The position numbers are program-made. From Candidatus Aenigmatarchaeota archaeon (GTDB taxonomy: Archaea > Aenigmatarchaeota > Aenigmatarchaeia > CG10238-14 > SCSR01): 41,085 nt of DNA. Within the stretch, counting starts at the first letter, position 1, and every line of letters begins with the position of its first letter. Positions 18,001 to 24,000 of the stretch are shown here, piece by piece. The stretch is taken from contig JAWADS010000004.1 of the NCBI GenBank assembly GCA_038998625.1, forward strand, positions 1 through 41,085. Direction: 5' to 3'.

Positions 18001-21000
18001 TATTAGCGAAATGCCAACTATGGCTATCGAGTGGGTTGATTTTAAAAAAAATGATTCTATTGTAAATGATGAAATTATTGCCCATAGGTTGGGGTTGATA
18101 CCATTAACTTTTGATCCAGACGCTTACAATTTAATAAAGGAATGCACATGCAAGGGAAAAGGTTGTAGCAAGTGCCAAGTTAAATTAACTTTAAAGAAAA
18201 AAGGACCTGGAATGGTTTATTCTGGAGATTTGAAATCAACAGCAAAAGATGTTAGACCTATTTATGATAAAATTCCAATTATTGAACTTTTCGAAGGAGA
18301 GGAGCTCCAACTAGAAGCTATAGCACAATTGGGAATTGGTAGGGAGCATGTTAAATGGCAAGGGGGAATTGTTGGATATAAAAATAAAGCCAATATAATT
18401 GTGGGGAAAGAAGTTGAAAGTAAGTTAGAGTATTTAGAAGTTTGCCCAACTAATGTCTTTGATATAGAAAATAATAAGTTAATAACGGCAAGGCCTTTGG
18501 ATTGTATCTTATGCATGCAATGTGTAGAAGCCAGTGGAGGAAAGATTAAAGTAGAACCAATAGAAGATTCATTTATTTTCGATGTTGAAAGTGTATCTGG
18601 ATGGTCTGCAGAAGATTTAATATTGAAATCTATAGAAATTTTAGAAGAAAAGCTGAAAACATTCTTAAAAGAAATCAAAAAATTTAAAATTTAATAATCA
18701 AAGAAAACTCATATCTATATCGGTGGGGTCGCCTAGCCTGGTCAATGGCGCGAGAGGGATATAAGAGATTTGCAAATTCCCTCGCGACGCTTAAGTACTA
18801 GGCTTAAGCTCAGAAACCAGATGAAGAAACCTCGTGGCTTAGTGCCTTCGTGGGTTCAAATCCCACCCCCACCACCATTGCTATTAAAAATCTCCAACCA
18901 AAATTCTCGAAAATTTATATACCAATAAAAGTATGGTGAACAAAGTTATAATCATGGCTCTCCCAGGTGTTTGTGCATCTTGTGGTAGAAGTGCTGCTGG
19001 TTTATTCACGTGCCATGTTTGCAGATTAAGAGTATGCCCAAATTGTGTTATAGAGAAAACTACTTTTTGCAAAATTTGTAAAGGAGTTAAAAATTTCTAA
19101 AAAATTTTTAAAACTTCATCAAGCTTTCTACTAATTTTCTTGTGGCTTCCTGAGATTCCTCGTCCGTTGGTTTTATAATTTCAGTGACTAATCTTTCAAT
19201 TTCTCTTTTTTTTGCTGCTTCCCCAATCTCTACTATTGATTTGAAAGGTGCTATAACTTTTGCTTGAGTCGCTTTCATTTCATTTATTTCTTTTTGCATT
19301 TCTAACAATGCTGTCCATAACTGAGCAACTTTAACATCTTCTGCTTTTTCATATGCGCAATGATGTTTTTTAGCTCTTTCTATGATTTGTAATAATAATT
19401 CCTTATCTTCTGGATGCAAACAGTTTTTCCAGTCTTCCTCTTTCATTTTCATCTATTTTTTAATGAAGAGTAAAATTTAAATGTTTAATTGCAAAGATTT
19501 TTAAGCTGATATTATGAAAACTGGCGATTTTATTTACATAGACTATGTAGGTAGAGTAAAAGATACTGGAGAAATTTTTGATTTAACAATAGAGGAAGTA
19601 GCAAGAAAAGAAGGTGTATTTAATCCTAATATAAAGTATAAGCCTGTGCCAATCGTTGTAGATGCAGGATTTGTAATTAAAGGTTTGGATGAAGCTTTAA
19701 AAGAAATGAAAGTTGGTGAGAAAAAAACTATAGAAATTCCTCCTGAAAAGGCCTTCGGCGAGAGGGATGAAAATTTGATAAGGCTTATACCTCTTTCACT
19801 ATTCAAAGAAAAAAATATTGATTCTACACCAGGTAGTTATGTGATGATTAATAATATAAGAGGTAGGATAATAAGCAATGATGGCGGTAGAGTAAAAGTT
19901 GATTTTAATCATCCTTTGGCTGGCAAAAAATTGCAATATGATGTGGAAATAAAGAAAGAAATAATTGATATTTCAGAGAAGATTAAAGCTATTATCTATT
20001 ATTTTTCTGGAATAGAATTTGATGAAATTTTGGTGGAAATTAAGGGAAAAATTGTAGAAATAAAGTTTGATAAGAAAATTTCCCTCAATTTAAATTTAGA
20101 AAGTAAAATAGCTGACGAAATTAAAAAATGGATTAAAGATGTTGAAAAGGTAAGATTTGTGTCTGAGTATTAAAAACTTTTATCTTTAAAATTGAAATTA
20201 TATCATAGGTTTCTTATGGGAATAAAACAATTAATTGAAAAGCAATCAGGAAAATTTACAGATGTTGACGAAGAAATTAGGGCAATTCTGGAAAAAAGAA
20301 AAACGAAAATAAAGGTTGTGGGTTGTGGTGGTGCAGGAAATAACACAATTACAAGATTGATGCAAGTTGGTATTGTTGGAGCTGAAACCATAGCAATAAA
20401 TACAGACGCTCAAGACTTGCTTTATACTGATGCTGATAAAAAAGTTTTGATTGGTAGAGAGCTTACTGGTGGATTGGGAGCTGGATCCGACCCAAAAATA
20501 GGAATGGAGGCTGCAAGAGAAAATAAGGAGGATATTAAGAAAGCCCTACAAGGGGCTGATATGGTTTTTCTTACTTGCGGTTTGGGTGGCGGATGCCTAA
20601 GAGGCAGTTCTTTAATATACACCAATCCTCATGGACCTGTAAGGATAGATTCGATAAAACCTAATTCCTTTGTGTATTCTCTTGAAGGAGATAAGCTTGT
20701 GAAAAAACGTGTTATTGCTGCTATGAAAACTGGAGTCAAAAGAGTATTTGAAATTAAAACAAACAATAACACATTAGTTGCTTCTTACGATCATCCTTTC
20801 TTAAAAGTAGTGCCAGAGAAAACAGATTATCGAGGTAGATTTCATAGATTTAGTTTCGAGTGGGTAGGAGCAGAGTCTTTGAAACCAGGCGATTTGGTTG
20901 TTATTTTGAGAAAGGTACCAGAAAGTACAGAAACTATACTCGATGATAATTTCATTGCAACAAAAAACTTTTGTAGACTGTTTGGATTTTTATTAGGTAA

Positions 21001-24000
21001 CGGATGGGTATCAAAAAGTAAAGGCATTTGGGCAATTCATTTTTCACCTTCACAATATGAAGAATTGAATAAAAAATACATATCGCTTATAAAAGAAGTT
21101 TTTGGCCTTGAAATGAAAAGAGGTACTAATTGGTATTATGCACATTCTAAACGAGTTTGTGAACTTTTATGGAAACTGGGATTAGATAAACATGCCAAAG
21201 AAAAAGAAATCCCTTCATGGGTATTTGAATTACCCGATTCTCATAAAAAAGAATTTATTCTTGGTCTTGCTGATGCAGATGGTTATTATTATAAAAGAAC
21301 AAAAGCAAATGGAAAAGAGCATATTCAACTTAGATTTGAAATGAGTAGCGAAAAGCTTATTCGGCAATTGAAAGTTTTGTGCGATTACCTTGGACTAAGA
21401 ACAAGTAATGTGTTATCAAGAAAGAGAGAAGTAAAACCACCTCATTCTAAACAAAAGCTAAAATTCACTTCTTGGGAGCTGAGAATTTATAAACTATATC
21501 AACTTAACGAATCCTTAGAAAAGTCAAGAGAGCGAAAAGGCATAGGATTCCTATGCGGATACAGGGGACCTACTAATTCTGAATTCTTTAAAAACTTTGG
21601 TTTTGCAAGAATCAAGTCTGTCAAATACTTAGGCGAAGAAGAAGTTTATGATATAACTGTAGAAGGTAGCCATAATTTTGTTGCAGAAGGTTTTCTTGTA
21701 CATAACACGGGTTCAGGTTCTATTCCAGTAGTAGCGGAAATTGCAAAAAAATTGGGAGCTTTGACAGTAGCTGTTGTTACATTGCCATTTAGCATGGAAG
21801 GAAGACATAGAATAGAAAACGCGAGATTTGGTTTAGAGAATCTGGAAAATTTAGTAGATACTTTAATCGTTATACCCAATGATAAGCTATTGGAAGTTGT
21901 GCCCGATGTTTCTCTAGCTACTGCTTTTAAAGTTTGTGATGAAATTTTAGTTAACGCAGTGAAAGGAATAACTGAACTCGTTACTAGGCCTGGCTTAGTT
22001 AATTTAGATTTTGCTGATGTTAAAGCTGTTATGAGCCAAGGAGGCTTGGCCATGATTGGTATGGGGGAGAGTGATACAGAAAACAGAGCAGTAGAATCTG
22101 TAGAAAAAGCTTTAAACAATCCGCTGATAACAGTAGAAATAGAGGGAGCGAAGGGGGCATTGGTGAATGTAAGTGGTGGGCCCGATATAACGATAAAAGA
22201 AGCTCAGAAAATAGTTGAAATGGTTTCTAGTAGATTGTCCGAAGATGCAAAGGTAATTTGGGGTGCTGTTGTAGATAAATCTTTAGGGGATAGCATTAGA
22301 ACATTGGTAATTGTAACTGGAGTTAAATCTCCACAAATCTTCGGACCAGAAAGACCATGGTCAAAAGAAAAGAAAAAAGATGTAGAAAAAATTTTAGGTA
22401 TAGAATTTTTAGAGTAATTTTTGTGATACAATGAAATTTAATATAAAAGAGTTTTTAGAGAAATATAAAAGAGTTTTGATAGTTGCCAAGAGGCCGGATA
22501 AAGAAGAATTGCTATTAACCATAAAAATTTGCCTTATAGGTATGGGTATAATTGGTTTCATCGGATTTTTAATTTATATGATATCAATTCTATTCATCGG
22601 GTGAAAAACTTGATATATACTGTAAAGACTGTTGTCGGAAGGGAAAATATAGTATTGGATATTATTGCGTCTAAAGCTAAAGCTGAAGGATTTAATATTA
22701 AAGCTTTGATCCATCCAGAAGAAATTAAAGGCTACATTTTTGTAGAGGGAGATATTAAAGATATAGAGAAATCAATACAATTAATTCCCCATGTAAGAGG
22801 CTTAATAAAAAAACCTGTTGAAGTTAGTGAAATCCAAAAATTTTTACAACCTAAACAAGTAGAAGTTGAAATAAATATTGGGGATTTAATTGAAGTTATA
22901 GGCGGACCTTTTAAAGGAATGAAAGGAAAGGTTACTAGATATGATAAGATAAAAAGAGAAGTTACCATAGAACCTTTAGAAGTTGCTGTACCAATACCAG
23001 TAACCATAAGTGTAGAATTTATAAAAGTTTTAGAAAAGGTTAGCAAATAATTATGCGAGAAACAGTTGCCTCGCTTATAAAAAAGGAATTGGGTATTGAA
23101 GTAGCAAAAATTTCTCAAGAAGACAAAGCCAAAGGAATCACATCCATAGGAAACTTAAAAATGGAGCAAGTAGTAAAAATAGCTAAACAAAAATTAAATG
23201 ATATGTTAACAAAAGATTTAAGAAAAGCCATAAAGGAAGTTTTAGGCACTGCAAATTCTATGGAAGGAATTTTAGTAGAAGGTAAGAGGCCGAAAGAGAT
23301 CATAAAAGAAGTGAATGAAGGAAAGTGGGATGATTTAATTTATTAAAGAATCCTTTTTTCCTCCAACACTATAGCTTCACACCCTGCATTCCTTATCATC
23401 AAAGCAATTTTAATTAATTCTTGTAAATTCTCTGATCTCCATGCGCTTGTTTGAATTTTTTCAGCTTTGATTTGCTCTAAAGCCCTGTGGACCTTTACCC
23501 TCAAAACATCTTTATTTTTTGGAATATCATAAATTAAAATTCCTGGCACAATTATTTTTAATTCCATTGCCTTTTTATATTTAACCTAGAATATAATTTT
23601 TAAAAGACCGCTTAGGCGGGAGGGTAAAATGGTTAACCCGAAGATATTAGAAGCAATAAAAGAATTGAGACAGAATTCTAAAAAGAGAAATTTTACCCAG
23701 AGCGTTGAGTTAATTGTAAATTTAAAAGAAATCGATATTAAAAAGCCTGAAGACAGATTTTCTGAGGATATAATTTTACCAAATGGTAGAGGAAAGGATG
23801 CAAAAGTTGTTATTTTCTCTGATGAAATAAAAGATTTAGGTTTGGATGTAGAAATCATCGATTCAGCAAAACTTCAAAGGATGAGTAAAAGGGAAGCAAA
23901 AAAGCTCGCTAGAGATGTGGATTTCTTTCTGGCAGAACCTAAATTAATGCCCACCATAGGAAAAGTTTTGGGTCAATATATTGGGCCAAGAGGTAAATTG

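Follow-up and report, generated by a model that had tools for sequence, protein, structure and literature searches.

A predicted class-1 intein inside the tubulin signature of an archaeal FtsZ1, with homologues at the same site in bacterial FtsZ genes

The window analysed here, a stretch of 41,085 nucleotides from a Candidatus Aenigmatarchaeota archaeon (contig JAWADS010000004.1), contains on its forward strand a stop-free reading frame (20216-22417) of 733 amino acids. An alternative upstream TTG at 20192 would give a product of 741 aa; the ATG at 20216 is favoured as the start because homologues begin with MG[VIL]KQ. To judge from its sequence, the product is an archaeal FtsZ1, here in a small hot-spring archaeon. 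In Pfam, the Tubulin profile scored 142 bits in two stretches, the best of them residues 31-126 (profile positions 1-121), and FtsZ_C matched residues 610-704 with 112.9 bits. A six-frame profile search of the genome placed Tubulin 1-121 at nt 20306-20593 and Tubulin 122-189 at nt 21707-21901, that is, at residues 31-126 and 498-562, reproducing the split match recorded in the initial annotation. The features of the locus are as follows.

19514-20173, forward strand: FKBP-type peptidyl-prolyl isomerase, upstream neighbour (Pfam FKBP_C, FKBP26_IF, FKBP26_C; context only)
20216-20593, forward strand: N-extein, FtsZ1 residues 1-126, ending in ...VFLTCGLGGG, the first half of the tubulin signature or T4 loop (Tubulin 1-121; 1w58 chain 22-134)
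20594-21706, forward strand: predicted intein of 371 aa, residues 127-497, in which a LAGLIDADG endonuclease domain interrupts a putative HINT splicing domain (Pfam; missing from the same-genus orthologue)
20594-20611, forward strand: splicing block A, CLRGSS, with Cys127 as intein residue 1, the putative nucleophile
20780-20800, forward strand: splicing block B, ASYDHPF, with Ser190-x-x-His193 (D192, H193, P194 and F195 invariant, S190 at least 90% conserved)
20987-21007, forward strand: LAGLIDADG motif 1, FLLGNGW, with Asn262 (AAC, 20999-21001) at the catalytic Asp position
21266-21286, forward strand: LAGLIDADG motif 2, LADADGY, with Asp355 (GAT at 21278) intact (D in 73 of 74 homologues)
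21644-21706, forward strand: splicing blocks F and G, VYDITVEGSHNF ... GFLVHN, ending in His496-Asn497
21707-22417, forward strand: C-extein, FtsZ1 residues 498-733 and stop, starting TGSGSIPVVAEIAKK (Tubulin 122-189, FtsZ_C; 1w58 chain 135-346)
22529-23050, forward strand: Spt5/NusG (Pfam Spt5-NGN and KOW), downstream neighbour, followed by L11, L1 and L10 (Ribosomal_L11, L1, L10; context only)

The best match among solved structures was 1w58 ('cell division protein FtsZ homolog 1', E 1.9e-118), other FtsZ chains reaching about 1e-84, and the downstream Spt5-L11-L1-L10 neighbourhood is one that we take to be a mark of FtsZ1. The genome also encodes a second FtsZ paralogue, ~49% identical over the C-extein. 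Its signature is uninterrupted (AGLGKGTGTGS), as the initial annotation had stated, but the gene lies outside the window, on another contig (C5:1142-2290 of L009).

The two halves of FtsZ1 are separated by 371 residues (127-497, nt 20594-21706) located exactly between the GGG and the TGSG of the tubulin signature loop. Residues 14-126 align to positions 22-134, and residues 498-709 to positions 135-346, of the M. jannaschii FtsZ chain (1w58/1fsz), and because these flanks align without a gap the insert is seamless between ...CGLGGG and TGSGS.... Read across it, GGG and TGSG give the FtsZ signature GGGTG[ST]G, followed by the C-terminal domain, so that the interruption of this motif proposed in the initial annotation stands. 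The insert is in frame, and its removal restores a contiguous host protein, according both to this alignment and to the same-genus orthologue G001. The latter, of 368 aa, reads ...GLGGG/TGTGS... without interruption (DNA GGAGGCGGA/ACTGGCACG), an empty site at the exact insertion point, and the exteins are 81-88% identical between the two.

An assembly chimera was also considered and rejected, as independent contigs from other samples match the window with 0 differences across both junctions (X5 at 19900-21206 and 21206-22033; X7, which comes from a separate study, at 21609-21797). That the genome is a metagenome bin of 19 contigs might suggest that an intein of another gene or organism had been joined to ftsZ during assembly or binning. 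This is practically out of the question given these contigs from other runs and another study, and because the same architecture recurs in database proteins of diverse origin (94 of the best 120), on contigs of up to 362 kb, and in 14 further members of the phylum.

The insert has all the sequence hallmarks of class-1 inteins: Cys1, S-x-x-H, VYDITVEGSHNF, and HN followed by Thr at +1. Both Intein_splicing (residues 150-497, 61.5 bits, cut-off 35.8) and LAGLIDADG_3 (residues 344-404, 27.7 bits, cut-off 22.5) scored above their Pfam cut-offs, in agreement with the earlier description of a 371-residue intein with a LAGLIDADG endonuclease in FtsZ1. The first residue is Cys127, and the last two, His496-Asn497, are followed by Thr498, which would be the +1 nucleophile and is also the T of GGGTG. 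C127, H193, D479, H496 and N497 are invariant in 56/56 aligned FtsZ-inteins (mean column identity 57%), which supports the Cys1 and HN/Thr junctions noted initially, and Thr498 is at least 90% conserved among them. In the homologues that retain both junctions (n=88), the first one reads GGG/C in all cases and the second HN/T in 85 and HN/S in 3. The usual form of block B is TxxH, of which Ser190-x-x-His193 is a conservative variant with an invariant His. This Ser for Thr and the Gly at -1, either of which may affect the rate of splicing, are points that we have counted against the reading of the insert as a canonical class-1 intein.

Two LAGLIDADG motifs are present, FGFLLGNGW (256-264) and ILGLADADGY (348-357). 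The last acidic residue of each such motif is involved in metal binding; in the window copy it is kept in motif 2 (Asp355) and replaced by Asn262 in motif 1. The first catalytic column contains D in 71, N in 2 and G in 1 of the 74 full-size homologues, and the Asn262 codon is covered by the X5 contig with 0 differences. By analogy with other LAGLIDADG enzymes, homing by this copy is therefore probably disabled, and we regard the domain as a member of the endonuclease family by descent that is probably not an active enzyme. As all the splicing residues have been kept, the window copy is probably splicing-competent but has lost homing. N262 could otherwise be taken as a first sign of decay in a dead gene, in which splicing would have been lost and FtsZ1 would be inactive, the uninterrupted paralogue on C5 carrying division alone. 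We consider this very improbable, since the 2.2-kb frame is open, the exteins are as similar to the same-genus orthologue as stated above, the signature and all splicing residues are intact, both junctions are kept in 88 homologues, and a bacterial host exists without a second FtsZ match.

The homology search returned, as in the initial annotation, 585 proteins, the nearest intein homologue being 78% identical. The best 120 of these 585 could be classified as 94 FtsZ proteins with an intein, 16 inteins in other hosts and 10 FtsZ proteins without an intein; PF00091 and PF14890 occur together in 93 of the best 120, and the additional protein (P0078) is an FtsZ that is truncated but includes the N-junction. 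Many public proteins do share the arrangement, as had been claimed, but the intein is sporadic rather than common, contrary to the statement that it is common in DPANN archaea. It was present in 4/40 close relatives, with the G001 site empty, and in 15/371 genomes of the phylum, all from one order (14/70 in family f1, 1/3 in f2 and 0/298 elsewhere). Furthermore, it is polymorphic within genera (3/11 in g6, 2/6 in g11, 2/9 in g20, 2/6 in g24 and 1/2 in g1), and 14 FtsZ mini-inteins of 145-198 aa have deletion limits that differ inside the endonuclease region. Judged by these sequences, the family displays the full homing cycle within single genera: full-size copies, independent endonuclease deletions and empty sites.

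FtsZ genes located in ftsA/ftsW/murG surroundings, that is, bacterial ones, hold a homologous intein at the identical site. L014 presents the order FtsW-MurG-?-FtsA-FtsZ(intein) on a 195-kb contig, with no further FtsZ match elsewhere in the 0.8-Mb genome, and L026 the order Pth, signal peptidase, YbeY, FtsA-FtsZ(intein). The best solved-structure matches of P0033, P0044 and P0092 were FtsZ chains other than 1w58/1fsz, presumably bacterial ones (Bacillus, Staphylococcus), and that of P0001 was the entry named FtsZ homolog 1. The two records labelled Patescibacteria are not noise, and the element is therefore cross-domain and not a DPANN trait. The window copy and the bacterial-host copies are 63-66% identical in the intein and 44-47% in the exteins. 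In quick IQ-TREE runs (LG+G4), unrooted as to the direction and number of transfers and with four long-branch extein rows, the extein tree separated 21 bacterial from 52 archaeal rows (SH-aLRT 100), whereas bacterial and archaeal rows were intermixed in the intein tree, and a single clade of bacterial-host inteins was rejected (AU test, delta lnL 157, p 0.0017). We infer that the intein has moved between archaeal lineages and that it has also crossed, probably on two or more occasions, between the Archaea and small-genome Bacteria.

In all likelihood, then, the insert is a canonical class-1 intein with a LAGLIDADG endonuclease, a selfish mobile element located in ftsZ1 between Gly126 and Thr498, that has been mobile and has spread across domains and whose copy in the window would be competent for splicing but not for homing. 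The chemistry of class-1 splicing is established. Applied to this protein, the 733-aa precursor would be translated, the Gly126 carbonyl would be attacked by Cys127 (N-S acyl shift), the N-extein would be transferred onto the side chain of Thr498, the intein would be released by cyclisation of Asn497, and an O-N shift would leave a normal peptide bond, yielding a 362-aa FtsZ1 in which GGGTGSG is whole, together with the free intein of 371 aa. In homing, where active, the endonuclease would cut ftsZ alleles that lack the intein at this protein-constrained site, and repair would then copy the intein into them. The T4 signature loop contacts the GTP phosphates, and before splicing the insert would keep the parts of the nucleotide pocket on separate halves of the chain. 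Binding of GTP and polymerisation by the precursor are therefore very improbable, and working FtsZ1 would thus depend on splicing. This dependence of the GTPase can be soundly inferred from the position of the insertion. Splicing itself is probably fast and constitutive.

The same insertion at a point where the unspliced form should be inactive would also suit a domesticated conditional intein, in which temperature, redox or another hot-spring signal gates active FtsZ1, and hence division, and whose precursor, with its C-terminal face intact, might cap FtsZ filaments by means of it. Some other inteins are known to splice conditionally, the window copy seems to have lost homing while keeping all of its splicing residues, the Cys at -6 (TCGLGGG/C) could in principle pair with Cys1, and bacterium G041 has no FtsZ match besides the intein-bearing gene. 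However, the -6 Cys occurs in intein-free alleles too, the patchy presence within genera and the empty sites in close relatives are the pattern of a selfish element and not of a conserved regulator, the conservation of the endonuclease in 71/74 copies points to selection for mobility, and the sequence has no feature specific to sensing, so that we consider this explanation unlikely. For a splicing-gated FtsZ in the regulatory sense, as the initial annotation had suggested, we found no evidence. It would be bolder still to propose a post-translational division switch in ultra-small, host-dependent archaea and bacteria, responding to heat, redox or host contact, with the sharing of the intein due to direct genetic exchange between small-genome bacteria and DPANN-type archaea as neighbouring episymbionts, and we would give this idea little credence.

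The selfish class-1 element that we favour resembles well-known LAGLIDADG inteins such as those of VMA/V-ATPase (PI-SceI), archaeal RadA and PolB (PI-PkoII). These share the Cys1, the block B His, the penultimate His and terminal Asn, and a Cys, Ser or Thr at +1, and in both cases the endonuclease domain lies inside the HINT domain, which is a predicted one in the FtsZ intein. Both also interrupt an essential gene at a highly conserved nucleotide-binding motif. The FtsZ intein differs from them in its host, a cytoskeletal GTPase of the tubulin family, and in the Ser of block B. Profile matches were found to the V-ATPase inteins (7qss, 7qsu), PI-PkoII (2cw7) and Pho RadA (2lqm), the HINT fold being assigned from such profiles; at the sequence level the insert resembles solved inteins weakly, its best match (E 2.3e-11) covering the C-terminal block only. 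The best PDB sequence matches were the DnaB, DnaX and DnaE mini-inteins (4o1r, 1mi8, 7cfv, 2keq), in the block F/G region (VYDITVEGSHNF..VHN). The FtsZ mini-inteins share their endonuclease-free architecture, but the hosts and sites are others, and the window copy is a full-size intein that includes the endonuclease domain. Intein alleles common to Bacteria, Archaea and phages at one site are known, for example, in ribonucleotide reductases, and like them the FtsZ intein combines one site, homologous inteins in both domains and conflict between intein and host trees. Unlike them, its hosts are ultra-small archaea (source names Aenigmarchaeota, Woesearchaeota and Nanoarchaeota) and small-genome bacteria (the two Patescibacteria records).

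The literature searches found no description of an intein in FtsZ, in line with the initial annotation; its status as undescribed applies to the papers searched and does not extend to intein registries (InBase) or the supplements of Novikova et al. It is a real and apparently unpublished example of a well-known kind of element. FtsZ, the prokaryotic tubulin homologue, would join the intein hosts, fitting and extending the rule by which inteins settle in the best-conserved nucleotide-binding loops of essential proteins. One site in Archaea and Bacteria, with conflicting trees, could provide a clean marker for the movement of genes between ultra-small archaea and bacteria with small genomes. In the one bacterial genome in which the only FtsZ match found bears the intein, division should therefore rest on splicing. 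For bench work, this would be a natural FtsZ whose polymerisation should depend on splicing, available with full-size inteins, with mini-inteins of 145-198 aa, and from archaeal as well as bacterial hosts.

Finally, viral contigs yielded no close copy of the FtsZ intein (best 25-30% identity). Its nearest relatives outside FtsZ score under half as high (306 vs 688 bits), and the 20 of these that were scanned lie in genes for T4-type portal, SufB, subtilase, polyprenyl synthetase and Mrp/NUBPL ATPase proteins.

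The FtsZ1 gene of the window has an open frame whose central 371 residues do not belong to FtsZ. The ATG at 20216 is favoured as its start over the TTG at 20192, which would add eight residues, as the homologues begin with MG[VIL]KQ like the ATG form. The features are:

20216-22417, + strand: FtsZ1 open reading frame, 733 residues, no internal stop
Two stretches of the FtsZ1 protein: Tubulin/FtsZ GTPase domain (Pfam)
Nucleotides 20306-20593: Tubulin profile positions 1-121 (six-frame genome scan)
Residues 127-497, nucleotides 20594-21706, + strand: intein insert, 371 residues, between ...VFLTCGLGGG and TGSGSIPV...
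From Cys127: splicing start, CLRGSS, the first intein residue being Cys
Within the intein: block-B-like ASYDHPF
C-terminal end of the intein: block F/G, VYDITVEGSHNF...GFLVHN, then Thr498
Residues 150-497: intein splicing domain (Pfam, 61.5 bits, cut-off 35.8)
Residues 344-404: LAGLIDADG_3 domain (Pfam, 27.7 bits, cut-off 22.5)
Nucleotides 21707-21901: Tubulin profile positions 122-189 (six-frame genome scan)
Residues 610-704: FtsZ C-terminal domain (Pfam)
23053-23346, + strand: L11 gene, 97 aa, matching the RNA-binding C-terminal domain PF00298 only
Contig C5 of the same genome, locus L009, 1142-2290, + strand: FtsZ2-like paralogue, 382 aa, with AGLGKGTGTGS

The best solved-structure match of the FtsZ1 protein was the cell division protein FtsZ homolog 1 (1w58/1fsz; E 1.9e-118), in which query residues 14-126 correspond to chain residues 22-134 and query residues 498-709 to chain residues 135-346. 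As the two flanks align to contiguous stretches of the chain, residues 127-497 are a seamless insert, and the structure alignment together with the Pfam domains bears out the claim of the initial annotation that it lies within the tubulin signature, GGGTG[ST]G. The gene stands between an FKBP gene and the Spt5/NusG-L11-L1-L10 genes. The GC content (0.333 in the intein, 0.386 and 0.376 in the exteins, 0.314 in the window) gave no usable signal of foreign DNA.

Assembly error does not account for the arrangement, because independent contigs cross both junctions without differences: the N-junction in contigs of other sequencing runs (19900-21206) and the C-junction in other runs (21206-22033) and in another study (21609-21797). 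With these contigs, and with homologues of the same architecture, a false joining of the intein to ftsZ by assembly or binning is practically excluded. No contig join skipping the intein, as expected of an intein-free allele of the strain, was seen among the assembled contigs, which drop rare variants. A loose end at 20586 in run X6, which reads an uninterrupted GGG-TGSG, proved to be a short match to the ftsZ of some other organism. We also discarded as evidence of transcription a 178-nt contig from an RNA library of sediment (exact match to 21713-21889), as this is too little sequence and RNA cannot show protein splicing. The nine DNA runs with all or part of the gene are all recorded as hot-spring metagenomes; at least half of the sampled words of the gene were present in six of them, of which four may be the source sample.

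Across 56 aligned FtsZ-inteins (mean column identity 57%), C127, D192-H193-P194-F195, D479, H496 and N497 are invariant, as are the flanking G124-G126, G499 and G501, while T498 is conserved in at least 90%. Class-1 splicing chemistry requires these kept residues, among them Cys1, the block B His, the terminal His-Asn and the +1 Thr. Judging from this alignment, the splicing residues are retained across a family where much else has diverged. Block B carries Ser where Thr is usual. When the intein alone was used in a profile search of the PDB, the DnaB, DnaX and DnaE mini-inteins matched weakly over the C-terminal block, and V-ATPase inteins and PI-PkoII, also weakly, over the N-terminal and endonuclease parts. 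According to the sequence, the insert is very probably a selfish class-1 intein whose excision would rebuild the GTP-binding loop of FtsZ1, and a working FtsZ1 would depend on this splicing, which would be constitutive. It is rather unlikely that splicing is instead a regulatory, condition-dependent switch: the Cys at -6 might pair with Cys1, but it is found in empty ftsZ alleles as well, and nothing specific supports such a switch. That FtsZ1 is simply dead is highly improbable: an open frame, exteins that are conserved and splicing residues that do not vary all speak against it.

Repeating the database search of the initial annotation returned the same 585 matches, and the best 120 comprise 94 FtsZ proteins with this intein (93 with both Pfam domains and one truncated protein holding the N-junction), 16 other intein hosts and 10 intein-free FtsZ. 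Both junctions are present in 88 of the 94, with GGG|C on the N side in all 88 and HN|T (85) or HN|S (3) on the C side; the remaining six are fragments with one junction each, of the same kind. Among the 88 there are 74 full-size inteins (364-379 aa) and 14 mini-inteins (145-198 aa), and the deletions of the latter differ in their limits within the endonuclease region, which indicates that the endonuclease was lost repeatedly and independently.

The first catalytic Asp column of the endonuclease (LLG-D-GW) has D in 71, N in two and G in one of the 74 full-size inteins, and the window's copy has N262 (codon AAC, 20999-21001, confirmed without difference by an independent contig); the second motif, LADADG, is intact, its D being present in 73 of the 74. 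By analogy with other LAGLIDADG enzymes, the window's intein probably cannot cleave both DNA strands, and with N262 it is predicted to be splicing-competent but immobile. Further decay of the endonuclease motifs was found in a few other full-size FtsZ-inteins (proteins P0010, P0013 and P0041 and locus L015, in which, at 4001-5095, the motifs read GDSW and LGLADS---CY). From their motifs, we regard these decayed full-size copies as intermediates between active inteins and mini-inteins.

The statement that the insertion is common in DPANN archaea was not sustained. FtsZ1 is present in all of the 40 nearest genomes and bears the intein in four (full size in G007, G015 and G025, a mini-intein in G016), and a junction-spanning match was found in 15 of 371 genomes of the phylum, the window's own counted; two of these are partial ORFs, and incomplete genomes may conceal more carriers. 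By family, the carriers are 14 of 70 genomes in the window's family, one of three in another family of its order and none of 298 elsewhere. There is polymorphism even within genera (3/11, 2/6, 2/9, 2/6 and 1/2 genomes with the intein), and the same-genus genome G001 has an FtsZ1 of 368 aa, 81-88% identical, with the site unbroken in the DNA (...GGAGGCGGA|ACTGGCACG...). This patchy presence is what a homing element typically shows as it goes through invasion, decay and loss. No target preference can be read from the 42-nt flanks, which resemble the window's to the same degree at occupied sites (27.8/42) as at empty ones (27.3/42).

The FtsZ-intein occurs in Bacteria also. Bacterial-looking exteins (AGMGGG|...|TGTGAAPV) are seen in several members of the family. 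One of them, P0033, is encoded on a contig of 195 kb where the genes run FtsW, MurG, an ORF without assignment, FtsA and FtsZ(intein); it is the only FtsZ match in its 0.8-Mb genome. A second bacterial extein type is found in the order Pth, signal peptidase, HisRS, YbeY, FtsA, FtsZ(intein) and NrdD, and an intein-free relative of it, 79% identical, lies between FtsA and ComEC. For three bacterial-looking proteins the best solved matches were other FtsZ chains, which we take to be bacterial, while 1w58/1fsz failed to reach the E-value thresholds used. Of 401 genomes sampled from that bacterial phylum, the starting genome alone has the intein, and for the second extein type three of the 80 best metagenome loci, a sample biased towards the query, were occupied.

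Identities and trees point to horizontal movement of the intein. The window's intein is 63-66% identical to those of the first bacterial group, though the exteins of this group reach only 44-47% identity, whereas some archaeal hosts show the reverse (exteins 56-61%, inteins just 52-54%). The extein tree (73 full-size rows, P0059 being omitted as truncated) separates 21 bacterial from 52 archaeal rows with an SH-aLRT of 100. The intein tree has two main clades (support 99), each with hosts from both domains; there are five changes of the domain label, at least two of them forced by starred branches. Host groups were fixed on the extein tree, ahead of any look at the intein tree, and the AU test rejected the best tree with every bacterial-host intein kept in one group (delta lnL 157, p 0.0017). 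Archaeal extein clades are also mixed in the inteins: the nearest intein to the window's is that of P0002 (78%, extein 69%), and the nearest extein that of P0007 (82%, intein 73%). The trees are quick LG+G4 searches with four long-branched extein rows, and being unrooted they give no direction of transfer.

Among 1.84 billion representatives at 50% identity, the FtsZ-intein family has just two entries (688 and 241 bits), and the next match scored 306 bits. No FtsZ host was found among the 20 next-best proteins scanned, which comprise a T4-type portal (1), SufB (2), subtilase (3), polyprenyl synthetase (3), Mrp/NUBPL ATPase (2), an MptE-like protein (1), a lectin-like domain (1) and seven with no host domain at threshold. 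There was no sign of a viral carrier in a scan of viral contigs with the intein alignment, which returned five non-FtsZ loci with identities of 25-30%. A scan of genome contigs with the intein alone gave only five loci, as exact-peptide patterns have poor reach.

No published description of a natural FtsZ intein was found in the titles, abstracts and passages searched, intein registries being outside their scope. The main text of an intein survey (PMC4760082) contains neither 'FtsZ' nor 'tubulin', and passages of PMC4390880, PMC3655853, PMC11208441, PMC7824862 and PMC11869211 mention inteins and FtsZ only separately. The architecture is already in public records, unnamed, as 'cell division protein FtsZ', 'hypothetical protein' or 'LAGLIDADG family homing endonuclease'. 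Its interest is moderate; it bears on intein biology and on genetic exchange of ultra-small archaea with bacteria, and would offer a natural splicing-dependent FtsZ.

The genome itself, a bin of 469 kb in 19 contigs, has a completeness of 91.8%. The uninterrupted FtsZ2 paralogue described by the initial annotation does exist and is the sole other FtsZ of the genome, but it lies outside the window. An FtsZ2 with an intein was not found among 26 long relatives of this paralogue, a blank that is weak evidence; the intein-bearing ones were only 10 same-site FtsZ proteins already among the best 120, and the others are long or tandem FtsZ forms (690-834 aa), several named Altiarchaeum or Altiarchaeales. 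No match to the L11 N-terminal domain family PF03946, which all 14 control genomes gave, turned up in this incomplete genome, and its L11 may be truncated or have a very divergent N-domain. Four more genes bear inteins (on contigs C1, C3, C11 and C12; loci L001, L004, L003 and L006), their hosts being a Cdc48-type AAA ATPase, an Lhr-type helicase, a family-B DNA polymerase and RtcB, and five inteins are a high load for a genome of this size. Finally, a related LAGLIDADG intein (30-33% identical) is found in a TPP-binding enzyme (...DNE.Y.N|C...HN|TG.QRS) that looks like the beta subunit of 2-oxoacid:ferredoxin oxidoreductase; as both phyla, the bacterial (genome G508, L017 853-2889) and the archaeal (genome G289, L018 792-2783), have it, it represents a second intein site common to the two domains.
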